DNA from: Escherichia coli
GTDB lineage: Bacteria > Pseudomonadota > Gammaproteobacteria > Enterobacterales > Enterobacteriaceae
Strand: one strand, 5' to 3'
Assembly: GCF_003334765.1 (NCBI RefSeq)
Contig: NZ_QOWT01000003.1
Length of the DNA stretch: 64,000 nt
Part shown: positions 1 to 29,418 of the stretch, in pieces
Layout of the letters: every line of letters begins with the position of its first letter
How positions within the stretch are numbered: position 1 is the stretch's first letter
The notes under the pieces: model-generated
What the model was told of the DNA's origin: nothing
Databases searched by the model: none
Seen by the model: the letters and a program-made list of their open reading frames with translations, nothing else
Position numbers and translations under genes: made by a program

Positions 1-59
1 ATCGAACCAAGGACACGGGGATTTTCAATCCCCTGCTCTACCGACTGAGCTATCCGGGC
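1..59 (-). tRNA. pheV: tRNA-Phe, 5' part only (3' end lies beyond the window start)
   Basis: Reverse complement of 1-59 reads GCCCGGATAGCTCAGTCGGTAGAGCAGGGGATTGAAAATCCCCGTGTCCTTGGTTCGAT, i.e. acceptor stem, D-arm, GAA anticodon loop and start of T-arm of tRNA-Phe; lies next to yqgA as in E. coli. Confidence 0.9.
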
Positions 60-164
60 AACGGGGCGCATTAAACCTGATTCGCCTCGTCTCGTCAATC
101 AAATTTCTTCAATTTAGTGCAGACTGCACAATCTATCATCACTTTGCCGCTATTGCACACATTG

Positions 165-872
165 TCAGGCAAACCAGGCGGTCCAGGCGGCGGAAAGCGG
201 CATTGCCAGAAGGAGTGCTGGAAGCATGTTGACCACCGGGAACATTTTAATACCACAGATGCGTAATCCGGTTGCCAGCAGCAATAAACCGCCTACGGCG
301 CTGAAGTCTGCCATCATCGACGGTGTGGTCAGCGGTAATATCAGCGCGGCAGCCCACGCCAGTGTTAACTGGATGATCAGTAATGGAATGCTAATCACCG
401 ACACCGCAATACCCAGCGAGCAGGCGAAGATCATCGCCGTAAAGAAATCAAGAAATGACTTGGCGATTAAAATACTCGGATCGCCGGTCATCCCTTCGTT
501 CATCGCCCCGAAGATTCCGGTGCCGCTGGCGCAAAACAGAACAATAATCGCGACAAAATTCTGAATAAAAGATTCATGCGCTGGCTTCTTACGCGAGTGG
601 TGAAACAGATTATGCGCTTTGACGACCACTGTATTGACGCCTTTTTCCAGCAGACAAATTTCGCCGATTAATGCTCCGAGTAAGGTTGCTAAAACCATCG
701 CCGGAAGGTTGGCGCATTTCACCACCAGTAAAATACCAATCCCCAGCGATGCCAGACCAAAAATTGATGTCATGGAGACGCGGATACGTTCCGGTAAGCG
801 TTGGCTAAGGAGTGCGCCGAAAACGCCACCCAGTAAGACTGCACTTGCGTTGATAAAAGGGCCGATGACCAC
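165..872 (-). CDS. yqgA: DUF554 family inner membrane protein YqgA (235 aa)
   Basis: 235-aa hydrophobic ORF; position between pheV and speC matches E. coli. Confidence 0.85.
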
Positions 873-1270
873 AAGAGTTCCTGTTAGCTGTATTGTTTGA
901 TTTTCTTATTATGAACTTTTGGCGCCGTCGATGGCTTGTTTGTTCGCAAAGTCCTGGCTTGCACGCTTTAGCGAAAGGTGCCATGATTGCGCGAATTTTC
1001 TCCTCTCTGTACGGAGTTTGCCCGATGCACGCCACCTCCTTACATTCTCTCGCTTATCGCCGTTTTGCGCGAAACTCTTCTCTTTTTATGCTACTGCTCA
1101 TGCGGTGAAGTTAACGCACGCTCACTGCAGGACAACAGTAAAATCAGAGCGTTTCTGCTTTTACTGATGTCTGGTGGTCGGAGCTGGTGACCAGTTTGAC
1201 CCATATCTCATGGGGCAGGGTTTTCCACCTTGTCCGGTATTCTTACTTCCCCTAAACGGGTTTTGCGCTT

Positions 1271-3406
1271 ATGAAATCAATGAATATTGCCGCCAGTAGT
1301 GAACTGGTATCCCGACTTTCTACTCATCGCCGCGTGGTGGCGTTGGGAGATACTGATTTTACGGACGTCGCGGCAGTCGTCATTACCGCTGCGGATAGTC
1401 GCAGTGGCATTCTTGCGTTGCTTAAGCGCACCGGTTTTCATCTACCGGTGTTTTTGTATTCCGAACATGCTGTTGAATTACCTGCGGGCGTTACGGCGGT
1501 AATCAACGGCAACGAGCAGCAGTGGCTGGAGCTGGAATCCGCAGCCTGTCAGTATGAAGAGAATTTGCTGCCACCGTTTTATGACACGCTGACGCAGTAC
1601 GTTGAGATGGGTAATAGCACCTTTGCTTGCCCTGGACATCAACATGGTGCGTTCTTTAAAAAGCATCCTGCCGGACGCCATTTTTACGATTTCTTTGGCG
1701 AGAACATCTTTCGCGCCGATATGTGTAACGCTGACGTAAAATTGGGCGATCTGCTTATTCATGAAGGATCGGCGAAAGATGCGCAGAAATTTGCAGCCAA
1801 AGTCTTTCATGCCGATAAAACCTATTTTGTGCTGAACGGCACATCGGCAGCGAATAAAGTGGTGACGAATGCGCTGTTAACGCGTGGCGATCTGGTGCTC
1901 TTCGACCGTAACAACCATAAGTCGAATCATCATGGCGCGTTGATTCAGGCGGGGGCGACGCCGGTCTATCTGCAAGCTTCACGTAACCCGTTTGGTTTCA
2001 TTGGCGGTATTGATGCGCACTGTTTTAATGAAGAGTATCTGCGCCAGCAAATTCGCGACGTTGCGCCAGAAAAAGCCGACCTGCCGCGCCCGTTTCGCCT
2101 GGCGATTATTCAGCTGGGAACCTATGACGGCACTGTCTATAACGCCCGTCAGGTGATCGATACCGTTGGGCATCTGTGTGATTACATTCTGTTTGATTCC
2201 GCGTGGGTCGGTTACGAACAGTTTATCCCGATGATGGCGGATAGCTCGCCGCTGCTGTTAGAACTTAACGAAAACGATCCGGGGATCTTTGTGACTCAGT
2301 CGGTGCACAAACAGCAGGCGGGATTCTCACAGACGTCGCAGATCCATAAAAAAGATAACCATATCCGTGGACAGGCGCGTTTTTGCCCACATAAGCGGTT
2401 GAATAATGCCTTTATGCTCCATGCTTCTACCAGCCCGTTCTATCCGCTGTTCGCCGCCCTGGACGTTAACGCCAAAATTCATGAAGGGGAGAGTGGGCGT
2501 CGGCTGTGGGCTGAGTGCGTTGAGTTGGGTATTGAGTCGCGCAAGGCTATTCTTACGCGCTGTAAGCTGTTCCGCCCGTTTATCCCGCCCGTTGTTGATG
2601 GCAAATTGTGGCAGGATTATCCGACGTCAGTGTTAGCCAGCGACCGCCGTTTTTTCAGTTTTGAGCCGGGGGCGAATTGGCACGGCTTTGAAGGATATGC
2701 CGCGGATCAGTATTTTGTTGATCCGTGCAAGCTGTTACTCACCACGCCGGGTATCGATGCCGAAACCGGCGAATATAGCGACTTTGGCGTTCCGGCGACG
2801 ATTCTGGCGCACTACCTGCGTGAGAACGGCATTGTGCCGGAGAAGTGCGATCTCAACTCCATTCTGTTCTTATTAACTCCGGCGGAAAGCCACGAGAAGC
2901 TGGCACAACTGGTGGCGATGCTGGCGCAGTTTGAACAGCATATTGAGGATGATTCGCCGCTGGCTGAGGTGTTGCCGAGCGTTTATAACAAATATCCGGT
3001 GCGCTATCGCGACTACACCCTGCGCCAGTTGTGTCAGGAGATGCACGATTTGTATGTCAGTTTCGACGTCAAAGACCTACAAAAAGCGATGTTCCGCCAG
3101 CAGAGTTTCCCGTCAGTGGTGATGAATCCCCAGGATGCGCATAGCGCTTATATTCGCGGTGAAGTGGAGTTGGTGCGGATTCGTGATGCCGAAGGGCGAA
3201 TTGCGGCAGAAGGGGCGTTGCCTTATCCACCTGGCGTGCTTTGCGTGGTACCCGGGGAAGTCTGGGGTGGGGCGGTTCAACGTTATTTCCTTGCGCTGGA
3301 AGAAGGCGTGAATTTGTTGCCGGGATTTTCGCCGGAGTTGCAAGGTGTCTATAGCGAAACCGATGCGGATGGCATGAAACGGTTGTACGGTTATGTGTTG
3401 AAGTAA
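1271..3406 (+). CDS. speC: ornithine decarboxylase, biosynthetic (711 aa)
   Basis: ORF translation MKSMNIAASSELVSRL... 711 aa, recognised as SpeC. Confidence 0.95.
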   Translation: MKSMNIAASSELVSRLSTHRRVVALGDTDFTDVAAVVITAADSRSGILALLKRTGFHLPVFLYSEHAVELPAGVTAVINGNEQQWLELESAACQYEENLLPPFYDTLTQYVEMGNSTFACPGHQHGAFFKKHPAGRHFYDFFGENIFRADMCNADVKLGDLLIHEGSAKDAQKFAAKVFHADKTYFVLNGTSAANKVVTNALLTRGDLVLFDRNNHKSNHHGALIQAGATPVYLQASRNPFGFIGGIDAHCFNEEYLRQQIRDVAPEKADLPRPFRLAIIQLGTYDGTVYNARQVIDTVGHLCDYILFDSAWVGYEQFIPMMADSSPLLLELNENDPGIFVTQSVHKQQAGFSQTSQIHKKDNHIRGQARFCPHKRLNNAFMLHASTSPFYPLFAALDVNAKIHEGESGRRLWAECVELGIESRKAILTRCKLFRPFIPPVVDGKLWQDYPTSVLASDRRFFSFEPGANWHGFEGYAADQYFVDPCKLLLTTPGIDAETGEYSDFGVPATILAHYLRENGIVPEKCDLNSILFLLTPAESHEKLAQLVAMLAQFEQHIEDDSPLAEVLPSVYNKYPVRYRDYTLRQLCQEMHDLYVSFDVKDLQKAMFRQQSFPSVVMNPQDAHSAYIRGEVELVRIRDAEGRIAAEGALPYPPGVLCVVPGEVWGGAVQRYFLALEEGVNLLPGFSPELQGVYSETDADGMKRLYGYVLK

Positions 3407-3410
3407 GAAT

Positions 3411-3446
3411 AAAAAAACGGGTCACCTTCTGGCGACCCGTTTTTCT
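3411..3446. terminator. bidirectional rho-independent terminator shared by convergent speC and nupG
   Basis: AAAAACGGGTCACC-TTCT-GGCGACCCGTTTTT hairpin flanked by A-run and T-run. Confidence 0.8.
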
Positions 3447-3454
3447 TTGCGTAA

Positions 3455-4711
3455 TTAGTGGCTAACCGTCTGTGTACCTGTCGGGACACGAACGTGTTTA
3501 TATTTGAACATCGCCATGAACGCGAAGGCCAGAACCACGGAGTAACCTGCGAAAATCAGCCATACGGTCTGCCAGTCGGTAATGCCGTTTTGGGTGTACA
3601 TCTCAACCACTTTACCGCTCACGATGCCGCCGAGGATACAGCCGAAGCCGTTGGTCATCATCAGGAACATCCCCTGCGCGCTGGCGCGAATTGCCGGGCT
3701 AACTTCTTTTTCGACAAACACCGAACCAGAGATGTTGAAGAAGTCGAATGCGCAACCGTAAACGATCATCGACAGTACCAGCAGTACAGTACCGAACGGA
3801 GTCGGGTCGCCGTAAGCAAACAGAGCAAAACGCAGGATCCACGCCACAATACTGATCATCATTACGTTCTTAATACCGTAGCGGCTTAAGAAGAACGGGA
3901 TGGTCAGAATGAACAGGGTTTCAGAGATCTGCGAAATCGACATGATGATTGACGCATGCTGCACGATGAAGCTGCTGGCAAACATCGGATCTTTGTCGAA
4001 GCTGTGCAGGAAGGTATTACCGAACATGTTGGTAATCTGCAGTTCCGCGCCCAGCAGCATTGAGAAGATGAAGAAGATTGCCATGCGCTTGTTTTTAAAC
4101 AGAGCGAATGCATCGAGGCCCAGCAGGGTTGTCCAGCTCTGATTCGCTTGCTGTTTAGCAACCGGAATATGCGGCAGAGTCAGGGTAAACAGAACCAGAA
4201 TGGCGGAAAGCGCTGCGCCAATATACAGCTGCATGTGGCTTAATTCGAAGCCGGACAGGCTCACCACCCACATTGCCATGATAAAGCCGATGGTGCCCCA
4301 GATACGGATTGGCGGGAAGTCAGTAACGATATCCATCCCGGCATTTTGCAGGCGATAGTAAGAGATGGTGTTGATTAACCCAAGCGTTGGCATATAAGCA
4401 AACGAGTTAATCAATATCACAAGGAACATCGCCTCCGGCGTAGTGACCTCTGCCGCCATGAACAGCGTGATAGCGCCAATGGTGTGGCAAATGGCATAGA
4501 CCCATTTCGCACTTAACCATTTGTCGGCCACAATCCCCAGCAGCGCAGGCATAAAGACCGCGGCGATACCCAGTGAGCTATAAACTGCGCCGATAGAAGC
4601 ACCGTCAAACTTCAGGGTAACAAACATATAGGAGCCGAGGGTCGTCAGCCAACTTCCCCACAGACAGAACTGCAGAAAAGAGAGGATTTTCAGCTGCAGC
4701 TTAAGATTCAT
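3455..4711 (-). CDS. nupG: nucleoside:H+ symporter NupG (418 aa)
   Basis: ORF track 3455..4759; known protein starts MNLKLQLKILSFLQF 16 codons downstream of the ORF start; GAGGAA RBS upstream of that ATG. Confidence 0.93.
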   Translation of the reverse strand: MNLKLQLKILSFLQFCLWGSWLTTLGSYMFVTLKFDGASIGAVYSSLGIAAVFMPALLGIVADKWLSAKWVYAICHTIGAITLFMAAEVTTPEAMFLVILINSFAYMPTLGLINTISYYRLQNAGMDIVTDFPPIRIWGTIGFIMAMWVVSLSGFELSHMQLYIGAALSAILVLFTLTLPHIPVAKQQANQSWTTLLGLDAFALFKNKRMAIFFIFSMLLGAELQITNMFGNTFLHSFDKDPMFASSFIVQHASIIMSISQISETLFILTIPFFLSRYGIKNVMMISIVAWILRFALFAYGDPTPFGTVLLVLSMIVYGCAFDFFNISGSVFVEKEVSPAIRASAQGMFLMMTNGFGCILGGIVSGKVVEMYTQNGITDWQTVWLIFAGYSVVLAFAFMAMFKYKHVRVPTGTQTVSH

Positions 4712-4828
4712 GTTAATTTCCTCACATCGTGATGCGGATGAGTGTTTGAAAAAGCACATTTGACCGTGCGAGATGATGCGATTCTATCAACTTCGCGGAC
4801 TGGTTTTTTGTTACCTGTGGCAAATAAT

Positions 4829-4874
4829 TGCAAACATTCCCAATTTGCAAAACGAAATTGTGATGTGGATAACA
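4829..4874 (-). promoter_or_regulatory. nupG control region: CytR-type TTGCAAA-N9-TTTGCAA inverted repeat (4829-4850) and CRP-like TGTGA-N6-TAACA (4859-4874)
   Basis: motifs read directly in sequence about 120-160 nt upstream of the nupG start; nupG is known to be CRP/CytR regulated. Confidence 0.5.
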
Positions 4875-4912
4875 TTTTTACCCCTGGGCATCGTCAGGGG
4901 CGGTTAGTGGAA

Positions 4913-6019
<1,107 letters not shown>

Positions 6020-6056
6020 TTATGCAAGTTGCCGGAGGCGTGCTCCGGCACTGTTT

Positions 6057-6335
<279 letters not shown>

Positions 6336-6359
6336 TCATCCTCTTTATCGACTCACGCG

Positions 6360-7412
6360 CTAAACCGGCGCGCCAGTGCGTAACTGCTGTAACAAACGCT
6401 CCACGGGAGCCGCCAGGCCAACTGACGGCGGTTGCGCTAAGTTATACCAGAGCGCATTGTCTTCATCCATGCAGCCGATGAATGACGACACGGGAAGCCA
6501 CATAGGCACAATATCTAAGTGGAAATGGCTGAAGGTATGCCGAAACGCTGTCAGCTGTGTCAGGTTATCGGCAGCAATCTGCCGTTGCGCCAGCCACTGC
6601 CGCAAACTTTCTTCATCGGCAAACTGCGGGAAACAGTATAAACCGCCCCACAATCCGCTCGGCGGACGCTGCGCCAGCAATACTTCATCTTCGTGCTGTA
6701 ACAGCAAAAAGTAGCCGGTGCGCTCTGGCAGCGTCTGTTTCGGTTTTTTGCCCGGATAAAGCGACCAGCTATTGTTGGCGGCGGCAATACATCCGTTTTG
6801 TAGCGGACAGAGCGAGCATTTCGGCTTAGAGCGCGTACAAATCATCGCGCCCAAATCCATCATCGCCTGATTAAACCGCTCCACGCCGACCGCGGGCGTC
6901 ACCTGCTCGCTCAAACTCCACAGTTTATTCTCGACCTCTTTTTTCCCAGGCCAGCCGCTTACAGCATAGCAGCGCGCCAGCACCCGTTTGACGTTACCGT
7001 CGAGAATCGGAAAGTGCTTACCTAGAGAAAGCGAGAGAATCGCGCCTGCGGTGGAACGCCCGACGCCCGGTAACGCCGCGACTTCTTCAAAGGTTTCCGG
7101 GAATTTACCGCCGTGTAAGGTCGCCACTTGTTGTGCCGCTTTATGCAGATTGCGCGCGCGGGCGTAATAGCCAAGCCCGGTCCACAAGTGGAGAACTTCG
7201 TCGAGCGGCGCATTGGCGAGATCGGTCACCGTTGGGAAGCGCGCCATAAAGCGTTCAAAATAGGGGATAACGGTCGCAACCTGAGTTTGTTGCAACATCA
7301 CTTCTGAGAGCCATACTTTGTAGGGCGTCTTGTCAATTTGCCAGGGCAGCGTTTTCCGCCCGTATTTATCGTACCAGTCCAGAACCTGGGCTGAAAATTG
7401 CGACGCTTGCAT
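6360..7412 (-). CDS. mutY: adenine DNA glycosylase MutY (350 aa)
   Basis: known start [20 protein letters not shown] is 10 codons inside ORF 6360..7442. Confidence 0.95.
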
Positions 7413-7572
7413 GGTCACCGAATTCACTGTTGTTGGGGGCAAGATTGCAGCACAGCGACGGCAGGGTGTAAACCGGAACTTTCCGCAGCCACGGCCTTAT
7501 CATGCTTGCATCCGGCAACTAACTTTGGATAATGCCCGTTTTCAGAACACTTTCACAAGCGACTAAATCTTT

Positions 7573-8292
7573 ATGAAAAACGACGTCATCTCACCGGAAT
7601 TTGATGAAAACGGCCGCCCGCTGCGCCGTATCCGTAGTTTTGTGCGCCGCCAGGGGCGACTGACCAAAGGCCAGGAACATGCGCTGGAAAACTACTGGCC
7701 GGTGATGGGCGTTGAGTTCAGCGAAGATATGCTGGATTTCCCTGCGCTTTTTGGCCGTGAAGCGCCGGTGACGCTTGAGATTGGTTTTGGCATGGGCGCG
7801 TCGCTGGTGGCAATGGCTAAAGATCGCCCCGAGCAGGACTTCCTCGGCATTGAAGTGCATTCACCGGGCGTTGGTGCGTGCCTGTCTTCTGCGCATGAAG
7901 AGGGCTTAAGCAACCTGCGCGTGATGTGTCACGATGCGGTTGAAGTGCTGCATAAAATGATTCCTGACAATTCATTGCGCATGGTGCAGCTCTTTTTCCC
8001 TGACCCGTGGCACAAAGCGCGCCATAATAAACGCCGTATCGTTCAGGTGCCGTTTGCCGAGCTGGTAAAAAGCAAACTGCAGCTGGGGGGCATATTCCAT
8101 ATGGCGACCGACTGGGAACCTTATGCGGAACATATGCTTGAAGTGATGTCTTCTATTGACGGTTATAAAAACCTGTCAGAGAGCAATGATTACGTACCGC
8201 GTCCGGCATCACGTCCGGTGACGAAATTTGAACAACGTGGTCATCGTCTTGGTCACGGAGTATGGGACTTAATGTTCGAGAGGGTGAAATAA
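7573..8292 (+). CDS. trmB: tRNA (guanine46-N7)-methyltransferase (239 aa)
   Basis: [31 protein letters not shown]... recognised. Confidence 0.95.
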
Positions 8293-8618
8293 TGGCAAAG
8301 AACCGTAGCCGTCGTCTGCGTAAAAAAATGCACATCGACGAATTCCAGGAATTAGGATTTTCGGTGGCATGGCGATTCCCGGAAGGTACATCGGAAGAAC
8401 AGATTGATAAAACCGTTGATGACTTTATTAACGAGGTTATCGAACCGAACAAACTGGCCTTTGACGGCAGCGGTTATCTGGCCTGGGAAGGTCTGATCTG
8501 CATGCAGGAAATCGGCAAATGCACCGAAGAACATCAGGCGATTGTGCGTAAGTGGCTGGAAGAACGCAAACTGGAAGAGGTACGCACCAGCGAACTTTTC
8601 GACGTTTGGTGGGACTAA
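8292..8618 (+). CDS. yggL: DUF469 protein YggL (108 aa)
   Basis: [29 protein letters not shown]...; start overlaps trmB stop by 1 nt. Confidence 0.9.
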   Translation: MAKNRSRRLRKKMHIDEFQELGFSVAWRFPEGTSEEQIDKTVDDFINEVIEPNKLAFDGSGYLAWEGLICMQEIGKCTEEHQAIVRKWLEERKLEEVRTSELFDVWWD

Positions 8619-8650
8619 GAAAGCATACGGGCGATGACAAATGCAAAACT

Positions 8651-8730
8651 GCCTGATGTGCTACGCTTATCAGGCCTATAAAGATGCACGATCGAGTAGG
8701 CTGGATAAGGCGTTTACGCCGCATCCGGCA
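8651..8730. repeat. REP/BIME pair (two inverted REP units)
   Basis: GCCTGATGTGCTACGCTTATCAGGCCTA and TAGGCTGGATAAGGCGTTTACGCCGCATCCGGCA, canonical E. coli REP palindromes. Confidence 0.85.
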
Positions 8731-8801
8731 TGGAAAACGCGCACTTTGTTATCAATCTGGGGCCAGCAAATGCTGGCCTGATTTGTTCTTGAGGGAAGAC
8801 T

Positions 8802-9521
8802 ATGATGCGCAAAATGCTGCTGGCGGCAGCACTTTCAGTGACGGCAATGACCGCTCACGCCGACTACCAGTGCAGCGTCACGCCGCGTGACGATGTGATT
8901 GTCAGCCCGCAAACCGTGCAGGTGAAGGGCGAAAACGGCAATCTGGTGATCACGCCAGACGGCAACGTGATGTATAACGGTAAGCAATATTCCCTGAATG
9001 CCGCCCAGCGCGAGCAGGCGAAGGATTATCAGGCTGAACTACGTAGCACCCTGCCGTGGATTGATGAAGGCGCGAAAAGCCGCGTCGAGAAAGCCCGTAT
9101 TGCGCTGGATAAAATTATCGTTCAGGAGATGGGCGAAAGCAGCAAAATGCGCAGCCGTCTGACCAAACTTGATGCGCAGCTGAAAGAGCAGATGAACCGC
9201 ATTATCGAAACGCGCAGCGATGGCCTGACGTTTCACTATAAAGCCATTGATCAGGTTCGTGCCGAAGGCCAGCAATTAGTGAATCAGGCAATGGGCGGAA
9301 TTTTACAGGACAGCATTAATGAAATGGGCGCGAAAGCGGTGCTGAAAAGCGGCGGTAACCCATTACAGAACGTGCTGGGAAGCCTGGGCGGTCTGCAATC
9401 CTCAATCCAAACAGAGTGGAAAAAGCAGGAAAAAGATTTCCAGCAGTTTGGCAAAGATGTTTGTAGCCGCGTTGTGACTCTGGAAGATAGCCGCAAAGCC
9501 CTGGTCGGGAATTTAAAATAA
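8802..9521 (+). CDS. yggN: DUF2884 family periplasmic protein YggN (239 aa)
   Basis: 239-aa ORF with signal peptide MMRKMLLAAALSVTAMTAHA; position between yggL and ansB. Confidence 0.85.
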   Translation: MMRKMLLAAALSVTAMTAHADYQCSVTPRDDVIVSPQTVQVKGENGNLVITPDGNVMYNGKQYSLNAAQREQAKDYQAELRSTLPWIDEGAKSRVEKARIALDKIIVQEMGESSKMRSRLTKLDAQLKEQMNRIIETRSDGLTFHYKAIDQVRAEGQQLVNQAMGGILQDSINEMGAKAVLKSGGNPLQNVLGSLGGLQSSIQTEWKKQEKDFQQFGKDVCSRVVTLEDSRKALVGNLK

Positions 9522-9559
9522 TCCTCTATTTTAAGACGGCATAATACTTTTTTATGCCG

Positions 9560-9696
9560 TTTAATTCTTCGTTTTGTTACCTGCCTCTAACTTTGTAGAT
9601 CTCCAAAATATATTCACGTTGTAAATTGTTTAACGTCAAATTTCCCATACAAAGCTAAGGGATAATGCGTAGCGTTCACGTAACTGGAGGAATGAA
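9560..9696 (+). promoter_or_regulatory. ansB promoter region (CRP/FNR co-activated in E. coli)
   Basis: AT-rich region with TTGT...ACGTCAAA-like half-sites upstream of ansB; exact sites not resolved by eye. Confidence 0.4.
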
Positions 9697-10743
9697 ATGG
9701 AGTTTTTCAAAAAGACGGCACTTGCCGCACTGGTTATGGGTTTTAGTGGTGCAGCATTGGCATTACCCAATATCACCATTTTAGCAACCGGCGGGACCAT
9801 TGCCGGTGGTGGTGACTCCGCAACCAAATCTAACTACACAGCGGGTAAAGTTGGCGTAGAAAATCTGGTTAATGCGGTGCCGCAACTGAAGGACATTGCG
9901 AACGTTAAAGGCGAGCAGGTAGTGAATATTGGCTCCCAGGACATGAACGATGATGTCTGGCTGACACTGGCGAAAAAAATTAACACCGACTGCGATAAAA
10001 CTGACGGCTTCGTCATTACCCACGGTACCGACACGATGGAAGAAACCGCTTACTTCCTCGACCTGACGGTGAAATGCGACAAACCGGTGGTGATGGTCGG
10101 TGCAATGCGCCCGTCCACGTCTATGAGCGCAGACGGTCCATTCAACCTGTATAACGCGGTAGTGACCGCAGCTGATAAAGCCTCCGCTAATCGTGGCGTA
10201 CTGGTAGTGATGAACGACACCGTGCTTGATGGCCGTGGTGTCACCAAAACCAACACCACCGACGTAGCGACCTTCAAGTCTGTTAACTACGGTCCTCTGG
10301 GTTACATTCACAACGGTAAGATTGACTACCAACGTACCCCGGTACGTAAGCACACCAGCGACACGCCGTTCGATGTCTCTAAGCTGAATGAACTGCCGAA
10401 AGTCGGCATTGTTTATAACTACGCTAACGCATCCGATCTTCCGGCTAAAGCACTGGTAGATGCGGGCTATGATGGCATCGTTAGCGCTGGCGTGGGTAAC
10501 GGCAACCTGTATAAAACCGTATTTGACACCCTTGCAACCGCTGCGAAAAACGGCACTGCAGTAGTGCGTTCTTCCCGCGTACCGACGGGCGCTACCACTC
10601 AGGATGCCGAAGTGGATGATGCGAAATACGGCTTCGTCGCCTCTGGCACGTTGAACCCGCAAAAAGCGCGCGTTCTGCTGCAACTGGCTCTGACGCAAAC
10701 TAAAGATCCGCAGCAGATCCAGCAGATCTTCAATCAGTACTAA
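9697..10743 (+). CDS. ansB: L-asparaginase II, periplasmic (348 aa)
   Basis: MEFFKKTALAALVMGFSGAALALPNITILATGGTIAGGG...; carries the residues I recall as K-12-type (A27, D64, T252, N263 of the mature protein). Confidence 0.97.
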   Translation: MEFFKKTALAALVMGFSGAALALPNITILATGGTIAGGGDSATKSNYTAGKVGVENLVNAVPQLKDIANVKGEQVVNIGSQDMNDDVWLTLAKKINTDCDKTDGFVITHGTDTMEETAYFLDLTVKCDKPVVMVGAMRPSTSMSADGPFNLYNAVVTAADKASANRGVLVVMNDTVLDGRGVTKTNTTDVATFKSVNYGPLGYIHNGKIDYQRTPVRKHTSDTPFDVSKLNELPKVGIVYNYANASDLPAKALVDAGYDGIVSAGVGNGNLYKTVFDTLATAAKNGTAVVRSSRVPTGATTQDAEVDDAKYGFVASGTLNPQKARVLLQLALTQTKDPQQIQQIFNQY

Positions 10744-10747
10744 TCAC

Positions 10748-10778
10748 TTCGCCCCGGTATCGTGCCGGGGCTTATTCA
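10748..10778 (+). terminator. ansB terminator hairpin
   Basis: GCCCCGGTATCGTGCCGGGGC stem-loop followed by TTATT. Confidence 0.6.
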
Positions 10779-10859
10779 CTTCAGACTCACGTCCATTGCC
10801 AATTTTTATTACCCTAATGATAATCACCGGAATAAATTATTCCGCGCGAGGGTTTTCGG

Positions 10860-11867
10860 GTGAAAAAGCAATGGATTGTTGGTACGGCGCTGTTTATGTT
10901 GATGACTGGTAATGTCCGGGCAGATGGTGAACCGCCAACTGAAAATATCTTAAAAGATCAATTCAAAAAGCAGTATCACGGCATTCTCAAGCTTGATGTC
11001 ATCACCTTAAAAAATCTTGATGCTAAGGGTAATCAGGCCACCTGGTCAGCGGAAGGCGATGTCTCTTCCAGTGACGATCTCTATACCTGGGTCGGTCAGT
11101 TGGCAGATTACGAGCTGCTCGAACAGACCTGGACGAAAGATAAACCGGTGAAATTCTCGGCGATGTTAACCAGTAAAGGAACGCCCGCGTCTGGCTGGTC
11201 GGTGAACTTTTACTCTTTTCAGGCGGCAGCCAGCGATCGTGGGCGGGTGGTTGACGATATCAAAACCAATAATAAATATCTGATCGTGAATAGCGAAGAT
11301 TTCAATTATCGCTTTAGTCAGCTTGAGTCTGCGTTGAATAACCAGAATAACTCGATTCCTGCACTGAAAAAGGATGTAAAAGCGCTTGATAAGCAAATGG
11401 TGGCGGCGCAGAAAGCAGCGGATGCATATTGGGGAAAAGATGCAAACGGTAAGCAAATGACCCGCGAAGACGCCTTTAAAAAAATTCACCAACAGCGTGA
11501 TGATTTTAATAAACAGAACGATAGTGAGGCGTTCGCGGTTAAATATGACAAAGAGGTTTATCAACCGGCGATTGCGGCATGTCATAAACAGAGTGAAGAG
11601 TGTTATGAAGTGCCAATTCAGCAGAAACGAGATTTTGATATCAATGAACAACGGCGACAGACTTTTCTGCAATCACAAAAACTTAGCCGTAAATTGCAGG
11701 ATGACTGGATAACGCTCGAAAAAGGGCAATATCCGTTAACGATGAAAGTTTCAGAAATAAACAGTAAAAAAGTCACGATTTTGATGAAAATTGACGATAT
11801 CAACCAGGCTAATGAACGCTGGAAAAAAGATACCGAACAATTGCGGCGCAATGGGGTGATTAAGTAA
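10860..11867 (+). CDS. yggM: DUF1202 family protein YggM (335 aa), GTG start
   Basis: 335-aa secreted ORF; synteny ansB-yggM-hemW. Confidence 0.85.
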   Translation: MKKQWIVGTALFMLMTGNVRADGEPPTENILKDQFKKQYHGILKLDVITLKNLDAKGNQATWSAEGDVSSSDDLYTWVGQLADYELLEQTWTKDKPVKFSAMLTSKGTPASGWSVNFYSFQAAASDRGRVVDDIKTNNKYLIVNSEDFNYRFSQLESALNNQNNSIPALKKDVKALDKQMVAAQKAADAYWGKDANGKQMTREDAFKKIHQQRDDFNKQNDSEAFAVKYDKEVYQPAIAACHKQSEECYEVPIQQKRDFDINEQRRQTFLQSQKLSRKLQDDWITLEKGQYPLTMKVSEINSKKVTILMKIDDINQANERWKKDTEQLRRNGVIK

Positions 11868-11889
11868 TTTTTGCGATGACGCAAGAGTT

Positions 11890-11924
11890 GTAGCCGGATG
11901 TTGCGTACACGCCGCATCCGGCAA
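11890..11924. repeat. single REP-like palindrome
   Basis: GTAGCCGGATGTTGCGTACACGCCGCATCCGGCA. Confidence 0.7.
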
Positions 11925-11931
11925 TACAAAT

Positions 11932-13068
11932 TTACTCAGCCAGAAAAAGCTCCAGCAGCGAATTTAAAAACAACTTCCCATGTTCCGTTATCTGCCAGTA
12001 ATCCGCACATTCTGTGAGATAACCCTGAGCGATAGCCTCGTCTAACTGTGGGCGAATAACCTCTTCTGAAAGGCCAGTATACTGGCTAAACTCCACGCGC
12101 GGCGCGGCTTCCAGCAAACGGAAGCGATTCATAAAGAACTCAAATGGTTTATCTGCGGCTTCGACATCACGCTGGCTTTCCAGATACCGCCCCTGCATAA
12201 AACCACGTGGATGACGCGTTTTGGTGGTACGCAGAATGCGCCCATCCGGGAAGGTCACTTTGCCATGCGCGCCGCAGCCAATACCGATGTAGTCACCAAA
12301 GCGCCAGTAGTTGAGATTGTGCTGGCACTGATAACCGGGTTTGGCGTAAGCGGAAGTTTCATATTGCTGATAACCCGCTGCGGTTAATAACTGATGCCCC
12401 TGTTCGAAAATGTCCCACAGCGCGTCATCGTCCGGCAGTACAGGAGGGCGCGAGCCAAACAGCGTATTGGGTTCGATGGTCAGTTGATACCAGGAAAGAT
12501 GCGGCGGATTCAGTTCAATGGCCTGGCGTAGATCGCCTAGCGCCTCTTCCAGTGATTGATCCGGTAGCCCATGCATCAAATCGAGGTTAAAGCTACGTAA
12601 CCCTAAACCGCTCGCCAGATTTGCCGCTCGTTTCGCTTCTTGCGGGCCATGAATGCGCCCAAGTCGTTTCAGCTTTTCTTCGCTAAAACTCTGTACGCCA
12701 ATGGAGATGCGGTTCACACCAGCACGCTGATAATCAACAAAGCGATCGGCTTCAACCGTACCAGGGTTCGCTTCCATCGTAATTTCTGCATCCGCTGCCA
12801 GCGGCAAACGCGCACGTACGCCGTTCAGCAGCGTTTGCATCGCCGGGCCGGAAAGCAGGCTCGGCGTACCACCGCCAATAAAGATTGTCTTTACTTCACG
12901 GCCCTGAGCGTAAGCCACATCGTTGTCCAGATCGTTAAGCAGATGCTGAACATAATCGTCGTGCGGCACTTCTCCTTTCAACGCGTGAGAGTTGAAATCG
13001 CAGTACGGGCATTTCTGCACGCACCACGGGATGTGAATGTAGAGACTCAGCGGCGGTAATTTAACCAT
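11932..13068 (-). CDS. hemW: heme chaperone / radical SAM family protein HemW (378 aa)
   Basis: [27 protein letters not shown]... CxxxCxxC motif. Confidence 0.95.
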
Positions 13069-13654
13069 TACGTAAAGCGTCCAGCAGCAGTTTCAACGCC
13101 TGACCACGGTGGGAAATGGCGCTCTTTTCTTCGCGGGTCAGTTCGGCAGCGGTTTTCCCTTCGGAAGGTACGAAGAAGATTGGATCATAACCAAAGCCAC
13201 CAGTGCCCGCTGGTTCACGAGTAATCACGCCTGGCCAGCTACCGTGGCATACCAGCGGAGTGGGATCTTCCGCGTGACGCAGATATACCAGCACGCAGTG
13301 GAAACGCGCCTGACGTTGGTCGTCCGGTACGTCTTTCATTGTTTCCAGCAGTTTTTGCAGATTCTTTTGATCGGTCGCGTCTTCACCGGAATAACGCGCG
13401 GAGTAAATACCCGGCGCGCCACCCAGCGCATCTACCGCCAGACCGGAGTCGTCGGCAATTGCCGGTAAACCGGTCACTTTTGCCGCATGGCGCGCTTTCA
13501 GAATCGCGTTTTCGATAAAGGTCAGGCCGGTTTCTTCAGCGGAATCTACGCCGAGGTCTGTTTGGGCAACGATATCAAGACCGAAGTCGCTAAGCAGCGA
13601 CGCCAGCTCACGCACTTTACCGGCATTGCCGGTTGCGAGGACAACTTTTTGCAT
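13061..13654 (-). CDS. rdgB: dITP/XTP pyrophosphatase RdgB (197 aa)
   Basis: [21 protein letters not shown]... recognised; 8-nt overlap with hemW. Confidence 0.95.
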
Positions 13655-13661
13655 AGGATAC

Positions 13662-13952
13662 CTAATTAATTAACGCCGCGATTTCTGGCGGGATTTGTTG
13701 CGGATTAATGATTTTAATTTGTTTGTGGCGGCCAAGTTCGCCTTTTTCAATCACCACCTGGCTTTTGGCAACCCGGAATAGCTTACCGAGAAACTTCACC
13801 AGATGGCTGTTGGCCTGGCCGTCAACCGGCGGCGCGGTAATGGCGACTTTTACCTCGTCGCCATGTAAACCGACAATAGAATCACGGCTGGCTTTCGGCT
13901 GAATATAGAGCCGTAAAACCAGACCGTCATCATTAACTGTTACGGCACTCAT
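13662..13952 (-). CDS. yggU: DUF167 protein YggU (96 aa)
   Basis: [24 protein letters not shown]...; ATG overlaps yggT stop as ATGA; an in-frame upstream ATG would extend to 13964. Confidence 0.85.
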
Positions 13953-14515
13953 AACGCCATCCACAGCCCCGGCAGCAGCATATTTCCGGTCGCCTGCAAG
14001 ACTTCTGCGACACCCATATTGATGACATACAGCAGCAGAACGAGGATCATCGGCGAGAAATCAATCCCACCCATTGCCGGTAGCAAGCGGCGAATCGGGC
14101 GCAGCAGCGGATCGGCCAGCTGAATCAGCACGTATTCAATCGGGCTACGACCCTGGCTTACCCAGCTCATAATCGCCATCACCAGCAGGACCCAGAAAAT
14201 CAGCAGGCCGATGGTTTTCAGCAGAATTAATAAACCGGCAATCCAAATGATTGGCAGGAAGGTCACCACTTTAAACAGCACGATGGCTTTAATGAAACTG
14301 AGAATATAGGCAACCAGCAGCGAGGCGCTATCAATGGGTCCCATTGCCGGAATAACGCGGCGCAGTGGCCCGATAATCGGCTGCGTTACCTTCACTACAA
14401 ACTGTGAGAAGGGGTTGTAAAAATCACAATGAGCCCACTGCATCCAGATGCGTAATAACAGCACCATGGTATACAGCTCAATGACCGTTGAAAGCAGGAA
14501 AGTCAACGTATTCAT
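13949..14515 (-). CDS. yggT: YggT family membrane protein (188 aa)
   Basis: 188-aa polytopic membrane ORF in the yggS-yggT-yggU-rdgB-hemW operon. Confidence 0.9.
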
Positions 14516-14532
14516 GGCGTTCCTTTAATTCC

Positions 14533-15237
14533 TTATTTTTTAGAGTAATCACGCGCACCAAAAATTGCAGTGCCGATACGAACCATCGTGCTACCTGCCG
14601 CAATGGCGGCTTCCATATCGTCCGACATTCCCAGAGAGAGCGTGTCGATATGCGGGTAGCGCGTTTTCAGTCCGGCAAATGCTACAGCCATTTGGCGTGC
14701 AACTTCAAACTGCCTTACATATTCTGACTCAGGCGCAGGGATTGCCATCAGCCCGCGCAGACGTAAACGCGGTAGTTCAGCGACCGCAGCTGCCAGCTCG
14801 TCCAGTTCAGCCAGTTGAATCCCGGACTTACTGTTTTCATCACTAATATTAATTTGAATCAGTACGTTAAGAGGGGGAAGTTCTGCCGGGCGCTGGTCGT
14901 TCAGACGGGTAGCGATGCGCAAACGGTCGATGGTATGACACCAGTCGAAATGCTCTGCCACCAGGCGGCTTTTATTAGACTGCAACGGGCCAATAAAATG
15001 CCATTCTAATCCTGTTACGCCCAGTTCCTGAAAGTGGCGAATTTTATCTACCCCTTCCTGAACGTAGTTTTCACCAAATTGACGCTGCCCGGCATCAATG
15101 GCTTCTGCGATGGCGCTCGCAGGTTTTGTTTTACTGACTGCAAGCAGCGTAATTTCTTCTGGAGAACGGCCGCAACGCGTTGCAGCCGCTGAGATTTTGT
15201 CCCGGACCTGTGCCAGGTTATGCGCAATATCGTTCAT
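14533..15237 (-). CDS. yggS: PLP homeostasis protein YggS (234 aa)
   Basis: MNDIAHNLAQVRDKISAAATRCGRSPEEITLLAVSKTKP... recognised. Confidence 0.95.
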   Translation of the reverse strand: MNDIAHNLAQVRDKISAAATRCGRSPEEITLLAVSKTKPASAIAEAIDAGQRQFGENYVQEGVDKIRHFQELGVTGLEWHFIGPLQSNKSRLVAEHFDWCHTIDRLRIATRLNDQRPAELPPLNVLIQINISDENSKSGIQLAELDELAAAVAELPRLRLRGLMAIPAPESEYVRQFEVARQMAVAFAGLKTRYPHIDTLSLGMSDDMEAAIAAGSTMVRIGTAIFGARDYSKK

Positions 15238-15254
15238 TTTCCGAGGATCTTAGT

Positions 15255-16235
15255 ATGAATATGGAAGAAATTGTGGCCCTTAGTGTAAAGCATAACGTCT
15301 CGGATCTACACCTGTGCAGCGCCTGGCCCGCACGATGGCGTATTCGCGGGAGAATGGAAGCTGCGCCGTTTGACGCGCCGGACGTCGAAGAGCTACTGCG
15401 GGAGTGGCTGGATGACGATCAGCGGGCAATATTGCTGGAGAATGGTCAGCTGGATTTTGCTGTGTCGCTGGCGGAAAACCAGCGATTGCGCGGCAGTGCG
15501 TTCGCACAACGGCAAGGTATTTCTCTGGCGTTACGGCTGTTACCTTCGCACTGCCCGCAGCTCGAACAGCTTGGCGCACCACCGGTATTGCCGGAATTAC
15601 TCAAGAGCGAGAATGGCCTGATTCTGGTGACGGGGGCGACGGGGAGCGGCAAATCTACCACGCTGGCGGCGATGGTTGGCTATCTCAATCAACATGCCGA
15701 TGCGCATATTCTGACGCTGGAAGATCCTGTGGAATATCTCTATACCAGTCAGCGATGTTTGATTCAGCAGCGGGAGATTGGTTTGCACTGTATGACTTTC
15801 GCATCGGGATTGCGGGCTGCATTGCGGGAAGATCCTGATGTGATTTTGCTCGGAGAGCTGCGTGATAGCGAGACAATCCGTCTGGCGCTGACGGCGGCAG
15901 AAACCGGGCATCTGGTGCTGGCGACATTACACACGCGCGGCGCAGCGCAGGCAGTTGAGCGACTGGTGGATTCATTTCCTGCGCAGGAAAAAGATCCCGT
16001 GCGTAATCAACTGGCAGGTAGTTTACGGGCAGTGTTGTCACAAAAACTGGAAGTGGATAAACAGGAAGGACGCGTGGCGCTGTTTGAATTACTGATTAAC
16101 ACACCCGCGGTGGGGAATTTGATTCGTGAAGGGAAAACCCACCAGTTACCGCATGTTATTCAAACCGGGCAGCAGGTGGGGATGATAACGTTTCAGCAGA
16201 GTTATCAGCAGCGGGTGAAAGAAGGGCGCTTGTGA
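15255..16235 (+). CDS. yggR: PilT-like type IV pilus retraction ATPase homolog YggR (326 aa)
   Basis: Walker A GATGSGKST; start MNMEEIVALSVKHNVSDLHL 25 codons inside ORF 15180..16235. Confidence 0.9.
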   Translation: MNMEEIVALSVKHNVSDLHLCSAWPARWRIRGRMEAAPFDAPDVEELLREWLDDDQRAILLENGQLDFAVSLAENQRLRGSAFAQRQGISLALRLLPSHCPQLEQLGAPPVLPELLKSENGLILVTGATGSGKSTTLAAMVGYLNQHADAHILTLEDPVEYLYTSQRCLIQQREIGLHCMTFASGLRAALREDPDVILLGELRDSETIRLALTAAETGHLVLATLHTRGAAQAVERLVDSFPAQEKDPVRNQLAGSLRAVLSQKLEVDKQEGRVALFELLINTPAVGNLIREGKTHQLPHVIQTGQQVGMITFQQSYQQRVKEGRL

Positions 16236-16266
16236 CGTTGCTGTGTCTGATACGAATTGTAAATAT

Positions 16267-16360
16267 GCCCGATGCGCAAGCTTATCGGGCCTACAAGGGA
16301 AGCGTAACTTTGAATTCGCACTCACTGTAGGTTGGATAAGGCGTTTACGCCGCATCCAAC
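16267..16360. repeat. REP/BIME pair
   Basis: GCCCGATGCGCAAGCTTATCGGGCCTAC ... GTAGGTTGGATAAGGCGTTTACGCCGCATCCAAC. Confidence 0.85.
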
Positions 16361-16408
16361 ATGAAACAATGAGCACATTGTCAGAAATCTGTGCGCTAGT
16401 AAATCGCC

Positions 16409-16825
16409 TTAATATCCCTGCTCGAAATAGCTTTCGAGAATAATAACCGCAGAGGCAGAGTCGACTTTGCCTTTGTTGAGCGCCCGATAGCCGCCCTGTT
16501 CAAACAGACCGGAACGTGCCTCCACGGTGCTAAGTCGCTCGTCATGGAGCTTTACTTCAACACCGAAACGACCATGAATACGGTTGGCAAATTTACGCGC
16601 TCTGGCGGTTAACGGCTGTTCGGTGCCGTCCATATTCAGCGGCAAACCGACGATGATTTCGTCCGGCTGCCACTCTTTCAGTAAACGCTCGATAATGTTC
16701 CAGTCCGGCGTACCGTCCTGCGCTTTAATTGCAGGCAAAGGGCGAGCGGTGCCGGTAATGCGTTGGCCGACCGCTACGCCAATGCTTTTGGTGCCGAAGT
16801 CGAAGGCGAGTAAGGTTCCACTCAT
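16409..16825 (-). CDS. ruvX: putative pre-16S rRNA nuclease / Holliday junction resolvase-like RuvX (138 aa)
   Basis: [30 protein letters not shown]...; start overlaps yqgE stop. Confidence 0.93.
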
Positions 16826-17388
16826 CAGGCGTGTCCTGCCACACCAGGCATGGTGAGAATATCCACACCAATCAGTTTTGCCGCCTCGCGCCAGCGGTCG
16901 GCAATCGGCGTTTTGAACAGAATATTCAGATCTGCCGGGGCCGTTAGCCACGCGTTATCGAGAATTTCTTGTTCCAGTTGACCTTTCTCCCAGGAGGCAT
17001 AACCCAGAGCCACCAATACGTCAGACGGTTGTTTATCGGTGCCGAGCGTTTCCAGCACATCGCGGGAAGTGGTCATCACTGTGTTGTCTGAAATGCGAAT
17101 GCTGGAAGCAAAATTGGAGGGCGGAGTATGCAAAATAAACCCGCGATCTTCAGCCAGCGGACCGCCGAGCATAACCGGTTTATCCAGACGGATTGATTCA
17201 TCACGCGGCTCCGGCGTGATCTTCAGCTTTTCCAGAATCCCTTCAATTTTGAGATTTTCCAGCGGCTTGTTGACGATGATCCCCATTGCACCATTGGTAT
17301 TATGTTCGCAAATGTAGACCACGGAACGACGGAAAATCGGATCCTGGAGAGCAGGCATGGCAATAAGAAAGTGATGCTGTAAATTCAT
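16825..17388 (-). CDS. yqgE: UPF0301 protein YqgE (187 aa)
   Basis: [30 protein letters not shown]... recognised. Confidence 0.9.
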
Positions 17389-17496
17389 TGTCAGAGGTTC
17401 TGTTTCCTGGTTCAAAAAAGCAACAGCGCCCAGTATGCGTGGAAAGAAGGGCGCTGTCACTCAGAGTCTCAACGAGATCCTTCTCGCTAAGGTGGG

Positions 17497-18447
17497 TTAC
17501 TGCTGCTGTAAACGTGCTTCGATGGCATCCATTAACATTCCGGTGATCGACACCGGAAACTCTGCTTCAATCTCACGAATACAGGTTGGGCTGGTGACGT
17601 TAATTTCAGTCAGACGGTCGCCGATGATATCCAGACCAACAAAAATCAGCCCTTTTTCTTTCAGCGTCGGCCCAATCTGACGGGCGATTTTCCAGTCACT
17701 TTCCGTCAGCGGACGAGGTTCACCGCGACCACCGGCAGCCAGATTGCCACGGGTTTCGCCCCCCTGCGGAATACGCGCCAGGCAATACGGCACCGGCTCG
17801 CCATCCACTACCAGCACGCGTTTGTCGCCATCTTTAATGGCTGGCAGGTAATTTTGCGCCATGCAGTAGCGAGTGCCATGCTCAGTCAGGGTTTCGGCAA
17901 TCACGCCGAGGTTTGGATCACCTTCTTTCACGCGGAAAATCGACGCGCCGCCCATACCGTCCAGCGGCTTAAGAATGATGTCGCTGTGTTTTTCCCAGAA
18001 AGCTTTTAGCTGCGCTTTATTGCGTGTGACCAGCGTTTCTGGTGTTAAGTCAGAGAACCAGGCAGTGAACAGTTTTTCGTTACAATCGCGCAGGCTCTGC
18101 GGCTTGTTAACGATCAGCGTCCCTTTATCTTCGGCACGTTCCAGAATATAGGTCGCGTAGATAAACTCGGTATCAAACGGCGGGTCTTTACGCATCAGGA
18201 TCACATCGAGATCGGCCAGCGGCAGATCCTGCTCACCCGTGAACTCGTACCATTTATCGTAGTTCTGTTCGACGCTCAAAGTACGGGTACGAGCGCGAGC
18301 CTCACCATTGATCAAATAGAGATCGGCCATCTCCATATAGTGAAGTTCGTAACCACGACGCTGTGCTTCCAGCAACATAGCGAAACTGGAATCTTTCTTG
18401 ATGTTGATGTTTGCGATGGGGTCCATCACGATGCCGAGCTTGATCAT
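17497..18447 (-). CDS. gshB: glutathione synthetase (316 aa)
   Basis: MIKLGIVMDPIANINIKKDSSFAMLLEAQRRGYELHYMEM... recognised. Confidence 0.97.
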   Translation of the reverse strand: MIKLGIVMDPIANINIKKDSSFAMLLEAQRRGYELHYMEMADLYLINGEARARTRTLSVEQNYDKWYEFTGEQDLPLADLDVILMRKDPPFDTEFIYATYILERAEDKGTLIVNKPQSLRDCNEKLFTAWFSDLTPETLVTRNKAQLKAFWEKHSDIILKPLDGMGGASIFRVKEGDPNLGVIAETLTEHGTRYCMAQNYLPAIKDGDKRVLVVDGEPVPYCLARIPQGGETRGNLAAGGRGEPRPLTESDWKIARQIGPTLKEKGLIFVGLDIIGDRLTEINVTSPTCIREIEAEFPVSITGMLMDAIEARLQQQ

Positions 18448-18459
18448 TATTCTTCTCCG

Positions 18460-19191
18460 TTAGCCCAAATCGCCAAAACGCACTTGTAGCGCGGTAATGG
18501 CGGTGAGCGCAGTTGTCTCAGTACGCAAAACGCGAGGTCCCAACAGGATATCAGTAAATTGATAGCGGGCAGTCATGGCAATTTCATCTGCCGATAAACC
18601 GCCTTCCGGGCCAATCAGCAGGCGGACGCGTTCGACCGGTAACGGCAACGTATTGATGCTGTTGCTGGCGCGCGGGTGAAGATTCAGTTTCAGTCCTTCA
18701 TCCTGCTCTGCACACCAGGCTTCCAGATCCATCGCTGGACGGATTTCCGGCACCCGGTTACGGCCACACTGCTCACAGGCAGCAATTGCAATCTTCTGCC
18801 ACTGCTGGAGCTTCTTGTTCAGACGTTCACTATCCAGTTTAACGCCGCAGCGCTCAGAAAAAAGTGGCGTAATGAGGCTTACACCGAGTTCGATCGATTT
18901 CTGGATAGTAAATTCCATTTTTTCACCACGCGACATCACCTGACCGAGGTGAATATGCAGCGGAGATTCGCGATCGTCGATCTGGCCTTCCAGCACCTTC
19001 ACTTCCACGCTTTTTTTGCTGGCGCTGGTAATTTCGGCGTCAAAGACCTGGTTGCTGCCGTCAAACAATTGCAGCGCCTGTCCCGGCCCCATACGCAGTA
19101 CGCGCCCGATATGGTTGGCGGCATCTTCGCAAAGCGCGATGTGAGAATGGCTGGTCAGTGGTTCAGGATGATAAATGCGGGGGATACGCAT
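18460..19191 (-). CDS. rsmE: 16S rRNA (uracil1498-N3)-methyltransferase RsmE (243 aa)
   Basis: [34 protein letters not shown]...; start 9 codons inside ORF. Confidence 0.93.
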
Positions 19192-19270
19192 AGTTAAAAA
19201 TCCGCGTCGTCTCCCCACGCGGTTGTACGCGTGGGGTAGGGGTTAACAAAAAGAATCCCGCTAGTGTAGG

Positions 19271-19978
19271 TTAGCTCTTTCGCGCCTGGCAAGCGCGTTG
19301 CACATACGGGTTATGATTGCCCTGCACCTTCGCGATGCGTTCATCACGCTCGCACTCCCAGTCGGTAACTGGATACATCTTGTCCCATGCGTTGAACAGC
19401 TGCGTTTGCTGACGAGAGAGTGTCAGGTTGTATTGGTCACGCATATAGAAGTAGGTGCGCGCAATGGCACCGCGTGCACGCGCTGGTGGCTCGGCAACTT
19501 TTTCTTTGAAATCGACCTTCATGGCGCATTGACCGTACTGGCCTTCACCGCCATTCCACTGGCTGTACATAAAGTTGCCGCGATCGCCATTCACCTCACC
19601 GACTGACGGCTGCAGGTTATGCATATCGCTTTCCATCTTGCGATAGACCGGATCTTTGGCGCAATTTTTACGTCCACCGTCCTGCCAGCACTGGCGCTGG
19701 TGACCGAATTGCCAGGCAGGAACGACGTGTTCCCACTCTACGCGGCTGGCACGGTTTTCATTTTTTCGCACCTGATAGCCGCACGATTGCAGATCAACAA
19801 CGCCTTTTTTGCCCTGCCAGTTAATTTTACATCCGCAATAAAACGTACCGGGCGCGTCAGCGTGGACTTTTACCGCCGCGGCTTTCGCTTGAGAAAAACT
19901 ATTGATACCTTCGGCCAATGCCGGGCCGGAAAATGCTGCGCTCAGTACCACCGCAGCAATAGACAAATAACGGTACAT
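19271..19978 (-). CDS. endA: periplasmic endonuclease I (235 aa)
   Basis: [44 protein letters not shown]... recognised. Confidence 0.95.
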
Positions 19979-20072
19979 CACTTACTCCGTGTTAAAACGA
20001 GCCAGCAACGTAGCGAAAGTTGTTTTGGTATGCAATCAGCCAGATCAGGAAAGTTCCTGATAGTTCAGGTGG

Positions 20073-20570
20073 TTATTTCGCAACCAGCTGTTCGCCGCAG
20101 TGAACACAGCGATAGACGGCTTCGCCACGAACTACGCGATTATGACGGCGTACGGTAAGCTGATGCTCCTGGCACTTGCAGCGGTAGGGGAAGGTGTTGC
20201 GGCGCACGGATTGCAGTTCGAACTGATGCGTACGGCGGGCGGGAACGCCCAGCACGCTTTCCATCATCCACTTCCACTCTTTGCCATGTGGCGCTACGCG
20301 GCCGAAATGTTTCCATACCAGCAAATGTGCCAGTTCGTGCGGCACCACTTCTTCAATAAAGGCTTCACTGTTTTCCAACAGCAAAACGGGATTGAGACGA
20401 ATTTCATAGCTTTCCAGCCAGGCTGTTCCGGCAGAGGTTCCGCGCTGGGTGTAAGAGAGTTTTGGCTCCGGGTAGTTACGCCCTAGCTTCAGGTTGGCCT
20501 GGGCGAGTTTTTCCCGCAGGCGACGCATAACGGCCTGTTGGATGGCGATAGGGAGACGGGATGTTTTCAT
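20073..20570 (-). CDS. sprT: SprT family zinc metalloprotease-like protein (165 aa)
   Basis: [30 protein letters not shown]... HExxH motif ([11 protein letters not shown]). Confidence 0.9.
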
Positions 20571-20646
20571 AGCGGCAGAGGATAGAGCGAAGAAAAGATG
20601 ACTGCAAGAGGTGGCTTCCTCCATGATGGGAGGAAGCCTGAGGAGA

Positions 20647-29141: not shown

Positions 29142-29418
29142 GTTTTCTCTTCCGCACAAGGTCAGGATTATTCTAAAAATGCGCCGTTTGCAGGTGAATC
29201 GACGCTCAGTCTCAGTATAAGGAAAAGCGCAGCGGACGGGCGAGCAGATTGCGCAACATGCGAGCATGATCCAGAGATTTCTGAAGCGGCAAAAGGATGT
29301 TCCATGTACATGACGCGCGGCTTGCGGTAAATTGTTGGCAAATTTTCCGGCGTAGCCCAAAACGCGCTGTCGTCAAGTCGTTAAGGGCGTGCCCTTCATC
29401 ATCCGATCTGGAGTCAAA

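Follow-up and report, generated by a model that had tools for sequence, protein, structure and literature searches.

Classical islands at the tRNA-Phe gene pheV of Escherichia coli include PAI V of UPEC 536, the pheV PAI of CFT073, and LEE and LAA in EPEC/STEC. Across 5,426 complete E. coli genomes we found a P4-type integrase joined to pheV-yqgA in at least 2,941 (54%), using as a query the 2.4-kb junction of integrase, pheV and yqgA from B771 and requiring at least 80% of it to be covered in one piece. The empty K-12-type junction (yghD, pheV and yqgA) is present in 1,491 of these genomes (27%), and in about 18% pheV is in some other state, for example with a truncated or different integrase or an IS insertion. 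Elements designated GI-pheV have been reported in 52% of 2,383 complete genomes, with a P4-type integrase (intP4) as the sole conserved gene and five integrase alleles that lie 4-6% apart (Nhu et al., 2024, PLoS Genet, PMC11537424). The two occupancy figures bear out the proposal, made in a sequence-only reading of the DNA studied here, that pheV is a hotspot of island integration.

The stretch of DNA that we analysed (the window, 64,000 nucleotides in full) begins inside pheV. Its relatives and the assembly GCA_000158415.2, both described below, have in common with GI-pheV the locus and the layout of upstream gene, pheV and intP4, and the relatives also share the attR strings (the same as those given in Table 1 of PMC11537424), the modular IS-bounded cargo and an end at either attR or a kps breakpoint. 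The window, in contrast, holds only the chromosomal (attL-proximal) 59 nt of such a structure, and the membership of its source would follow from comparison with a near-clonal assembly. The classical pheV pathogenicity islands share the attachment tRNA and the P4-type integrase logic, but no LEE, hly or pap genes occur in the 9.8 kb beyond pheV of GCA_000158415.2. The empty pheV locus of K-12 MG1655 has the same tRNA, promoter region and yqgA-speC order as the window, but yghD lies 148 bp past its tRNA with no integrase, and the window lineage is ~2.4% divergent from it near pheV and carries two additional genes further in. The pheV fragment and the biology of the hotspot are already known and agree with published accounts of GI-pheV and of the classical pathogenicity islands at pheV.

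On the minus strand, window positions 59..1 read GCCCGGATAGCTCAGTCGGTAGAGCAGGGGATTGAAAATCCCCGTGTCCTTGGTTCGAT, which is the first 59 nt of the 76-nt tRNA-Phe(GAA) gene pheV. The Rfam tRNA model RF00005 matches this segment at 40.5 bits (gathering score, 29; E = 1.9e-6 when 3 kb were searched and 4.1e-5 for the entire window), spanning model positions 1-57 of 71 with a flag that the match is cut off at the 3′ end of the RNA. The anticodon loop carries GAA (Phe), and the segment agrees at all 59 nt with the first 59 nt of the 76-nt tRNA-Phe annotated in K-12, B771, NRZ14408, TUM9803 and F1022. ARAGORN reported no tRNA in the window because the gene is truncated there. The part that falls outside is the 17-nt 3′ end, TCCGAGTCCGGGCACCA, which comprises the 3′ strand of the acceptor and the CCA; all relatives and GCA_000158415.2 have an intact gene. 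The sequence-only reading had placed the start of the window inside pheV at 1-59 and had the 5′ portion alone within it, and both statements proved exact when judged by the RF00005 match, the 59/59 identity and synteny. Positions 1..6 (minus strand; TTCGAT on the tRNA strand) are the first 6 nt of a 23-nt att core, TTCGATTCCGAGTCCGGGCACCA, that recurs at the far end of pheV islands, and the attR copies of B771, NRZ14408 and F1022 start at this same TTCGAT. As pheV points leftward, its 3′ end and any element integrated at it fall to the left of the window, all of which extends in the direction away from the attachment site.

A second tRNA-Phe gene, pheU, is also an island hotspot, with an identical tRNA sequence and a similar attachment site, so that the flank has to decide which locus is represented. 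The flanks of the two genes differ, and the window carries that of pheV. On the 5′ side of the tRNA lies yqgA (DUF554; 165..872, minus strand), annotated as such in every matching genome, followed by a small yqgH open reading frame, by speC (ornithine decarboxylase; 1271..3406, plus strand), which serves as the second synteny anchor and was identified from the annotation beneath the genome matches, and by nupG and mltC. This is the gene order beside pheV in K-12, and each of the 5,426 complete genomes searched has yqgA-speC-nupG-mltC as its pheV flank. The tRNA fragment in the window therefore belongs to pheV.

Between the tRNA and yqgA, reading by eye identified a likely pheV promoter at 70..98 on the minus strand, with a -35 element TTGACG (98..93), a 17-nt spacer, a -10 element TTTAAT (75..70) and a GC-rich discriminator, GCGCCCCGT, between the -10 element and the 5′ end of the mature tRNA. 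The segment 98..70 is identical in K-12 and resembles a stringently controlled tRNA promoter, which is its likely function as judged from these motifs. A scan of window positions 1-1300 for the sigma-70 consensus gave no match, and it passed over the putative promoter because its rule demands an A at the second position of the -10 element.

Over the 50 kb of the window closest to pheV, six complete genomes are at or near 100% identity (0-2 SNPs), and in all six of these nearest genomes pheV is occupied, by five different elements. B771 has a 1,263-bp integrase gene 198 bp past the tRNA, followed by SLATT/Qat defence genes, CDI remnants, an arc operon and hlyE. An integrase of the 1,263-bp type is also present in NRZ14408 (with IS elements, Ag43 and CbtA/CbeA), TUM9803 (with a gene for an AAA-domain protein, tia, pap, sul2/aph and ireA) and F1022 (with IS elements, malX, cit/acnB and Ag43). 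GF43 and CM2 instead have a 1,101-bp integrase and an ICE-like element with TraI, UvrD and a type IVb pilus. The integrase region past the CCA differs by 3-5% among B771, NRZ14408 and TUM9803, and from ~1.4 kb onward the cargo is unrelated. On this sequence comparison the pheV island would turn over faster than the flank gains SNPs, since flanks identical over 50 kb carry five elements with integrase alleles 3-5% apart.

Several features of these occupants were observed in the retrieved stretches of the respective genomes. The B771 island (7611-16794) encodes QatC/QatD beside a KAP NTPase pseudogene, and a SLATT-domain gene forms a pair there with one for a nucleotide-binding-domain protein; remnants of VENN/CDI toxins, an arginine deiminase operon and hlyE are also present. 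With this cargo the B771 island is of a defence and metabolic type, not a virulence island of the classical kind. The GF43/CM2-type occupant, beside the same core flank, is ICE-like with its 366-aa integrase in the opposite orientation, and encodes TraI, a UvrD helicase, a type IVb pilus operon, a PilV shufflon and TraF; it spans 1-24779 in GF43, 1223-26001 in CM2 and 11094-20708 at a third locus. The pheV occupant of GCA_022586655.1 (11604-17492) encodes a 195-aa protein, a 394-aa P4-like integrase, a DUF927 protein and a second integrase, supplies its own terminator after the CCA, and may be a small satellite-like element. We found no sequence type or phylogroup for NRZ14408 in the literature.

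Island carriers depart from K-12 at the first base after the CCA, where a new terminator hairpin is supplied. At the far end of the islands of B771, NRZ14408 and F1022, an attR is present as a direct but imperfect repeat of the final 22-23 nt of pheV. It has a 1-nt deletion, with or without a G>T change, and the search that recovered it had to allow for this deletion. It reads TTCGATTCCGAGTCCGG-CACCA in B771, 48.9 kb from pheV (29412-29433 of the retrieved stretch), and TTCGATTCCGATTCCGG-CACCA both in NRZ14408, 34.3 kb from pheV (10639-10661), and in F1022, 55.5 kb from pheV (39049-39070). Each attR is followed by CTATTCTAAAGAACCCGCCCACAAGGCGGGTTTTTGC, the counterpart of CTAATTCTTAAGAACCCGCCCACAAGGCGGGTTTTTGC immediately downstream of pheV in K-12, with the same terminator stem. 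Searches of the first 20-45 kb of the relatives' islands and of the kpsM-yghD junction of B771 gave no attR; it sits before kps, and the order after it is an IS110 remnant, the kps capsule locus (~23-24 kb) and yghD/gspM. The relatives carry 34-55 kb of unrelated accessory cargo that is missing from the K-12 locus. Together, attR and the displaced flank are the footprint expected of site-specific recombination between the 3′ end of the tRNA and an att site borne by the element.

The kps group-2 capsule locus of B771, NRZ14408 and F1022 lies outside the att-bounded island, between attR with its IS110 remnant and yghD. At two further loci a DUF4942 gene at the island end abuts gspM directly, without kps.

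The state of pheV in the source of the window can be approached through the scaffold JH660541.1 of GCA_000158415.2. This scaffold equals window positions 1-10872 with no mismatches and, in a look-up by ArgO, positions 33263-53898 with one mismatch, at 49332, so that ~31.5 of 64 kb were compared and one difference was found. It is exactly collinear with the window (window position p corresponds to record position 2316487 - p), and has the K-12-like bases of the window at 52417-53619, where B771 differs at 15 sites. On the sequence compared, GCA_000158415.2 would be the source of the window in another version or a near-clonal sibling of it. An intact 420-aa integrase (domains Arm-DNA-bind_3, Phage_int_M and Phage_integrase) begins 197 bp after the CCA in this assembly, followed by IS remnants, a MarR regulator, IS66 remnants, a 629-aa protein, a MalY-like aminotransferase and a malX PTS gene; the malX module is a classic marker of the CFT073 pheV island. 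The 9.8 kb past pheV in GCA_000158415.2 are 99.9% identical to the island of F1022, bar a 1.95-kb IS insertion in F1022, and the island DNA equals that of NRZ14408 over the first 4.2 kb. The F1022 island is 55.5 kb long, and its cargo includes cit/acnB, Ag43 and a CbtA/CbeA module. The exact YqgA protein of the window was also found by contig look-up in 10 distinct neighbourhoods, one of them on JH660541.1, with an integrase past pheV in all 10.

From the relatives and the near-clonal assembly we infer that an island is very probably attached just outside the window in the source genome. The last 23 nt of pheV form the attB of P4-type tyrosine integrases. On integration an intact tRNA is rebuilt at attL, the integrase gene comes to lie ~200 bp past the CCA end, and the original downstream flank is displaced by tens of kb and now follows attR, an imperfect duplicate of the 3′ end of the tRNA. 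In the source genome a GI-pheV would sit directly outside the left window edge. The sequence-only reading had held that island attachment could not be judged; this stands for the window taken alone, which cannot show it, and gives way where public relatives and GCA_000158415.2 are considered, which carry integrase and island DNA past the CCA. No part of the window itself belongs to the pheV island: it is the chromosomal side of attL.

The type of the island is a less certain matter than its presence, because cargo differs wholly among strains with an identical 50-kb flank. With lower confidence, and by analogy with F1022, the source would have the malX-bearing type of that genome, ~55 kb long and followed by kps and then gsp/yghD; at its far end one would expect an attR of the form TTCGATTCCGA(G/T)TCCGG-CACCA at ~50-55 kb, then AAGAACCCGCCCACAAGGCGGGTTTTT, the IS110 remnant, kps and yghD. 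A different occupant, whether the ICE-like element of GF43/CM2 with its 366-aa integrase, the defence/arc island of B771 or the pap/resistance island of TUM9803, is unlikely: the five elements held by strains with the same 50-kb core flank, and their integrase alleles 3-5% apart, speak for it, but the sole assembly that has the mosaic of the window (K-12-like beyond 52.4 kb) carries an island of the F1022 type, at 99.9% identity over the available 9.8 kb.

Very unlikely is a source whose pheV is empty as in K-12, with the native terminator followed by gsp/yghD or kps, through either excision of an island or its never having been acquired. Precise excision of an island can occur without altering the core flank, in which case the window would read as it does, and the empty junction is found in 1,491 of the 5,426 complete genomes. 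Against the attached island also stand the private base of the window at 49332 and the fact that we found no assembly identical to it throughout. The identity of the distal 14.7 kb with K-12 further indicates genetic exchange with K-12-like strains in this chromosomal region, but that tract is at the far end of the window, away from pheV, whereas the pheV-proximal 52 kb are essentially identical to six complete genomes, all of them occupied. An empty site is likewise at odds with GCA_000158415.2, where the integrase is intact and the island DNA extends over at least 9.8 kb, and with the occupied state of all 10 distinct contexts found with the YqgA allele of the window.

The probability is negligible that the fragment is pheU, or an attR-like partial tRNA-Phe remnant and not a functional pheV, since, although pheU and pheV code for the same tRNA, the tRNA part of the query matches twice in most genomes and partial tRNA-Phe copies occur at island ends, attR remnants keep only the 3′ 22-23 nt whereas the window has the 5′ 59 nt with a conserved promoter region, and its flank is the pheV flank in every genome searched. 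A cadC/yjdC-type flank, as the pheU reading entails, is excluded by the sequence, which has yqgA in its place.

Beyond the tRNA, the attached-island reading concerns DNA to the left of the window, and the core DNA to the right is itself a mosaic. Compared with K-12, the window is ~2.4% divergent over 1-38 kb and 0.1-0.8% divergent over 38-46 kb, with a single difference over 46-64 kb, and its last 14,668 bases are identical to K-12 MG1655. Breakpoints lie near 38.5 kb, 46 kb and 52.4 kb. The best complete genomes match at 100% over 1-50 kb and diverge past 52.4 kb; B771, for example, has 2 differences from the window up to 52.4 kb and 106 after it. For 39-64 kb the best match is K-12, at 99.9%, and NRZ14408, TUM9803, F1022 and other complete genomes do no better. 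None of the 5,426 complete genomes matches the whole window; the longer K-12-like tract is also present in GCA_000158415.2, at least as far as 53.9 kb. This pattern looks like nested imports by homologous recombination. The base at 49332 is private to the window (T, compared with C in K-12, B771 and GCA_000158415.2), and the change is synonymous (CTG>CTA, scpA codon 630). A further synonymous SNP, at 16604, is specific to B771 and not to the window.

Scanning at Rfam gathering thresholds also placed three ordinary core features on the minus strand: 6S RNA (ssrS; 55905-56088), a Sib antitoxin RNA adjoining ibsC (55106-55256) and ES036 (41992-42034).

Two genes of the window are missing in K-12. 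The first is an open reading frame of 243 aa between speA and speB (26548-27279, plus strand), found at this locus in 3,543 of the 5,426 genomes (65%), whose protein had no Pfam or NCBIfam match. The second, between tkt and cmtB (31456-32400, minus strand), encodes an SPFH/Band_7 (prohibitin-family) protein and is found at this locus in 1,817 genomes (33%). The GC content is lower, at ~45%, in the region of the speA-speB open reading frame, and 35% in the intergenic segment 32500-33000 beside the SPFH/Band_7 gene. Both genes are separated from pheV by 26-32 kb of unbroken core synteny, in the direction of the 5′ side of the tRNA, and are ordinary presence/absence polymorphisms at fixed loci that are unconnected with the occupancy of pheV. 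That they might form part of a pheV island was ruled out by this position, distance, synteny and fixed location, as islands insert at the 3′ end of the tRNA and extend the opposite way. The same position and counts leave without support the earlier suggestion that the status of the island matters for interpreting these two genes.

The analysis yields an estimate of pheV occupancy from a larger set of genomes (54%), an assembly, GCA_000158415.2, that can stand in for the missing flank, and the decoupling of the two additional genes from pheV. It is distinctly unlikely, though conceivable, that the source is of an ExPEC-like lineage with a very recent mosaic in the chromosome next to pheV and a GI-pheV that may carry undescribed cargo beyond the first 9.8 kb; in that case the region around pheV would preserve a record of island turnover as well as of large homologous imports, both within a very short time. 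At the left edge of the window the conserved core genome meets one of the E. coli chromosome's most variable sites, and annotation of the window should therefore not be extended leftward by analogy with K-12.
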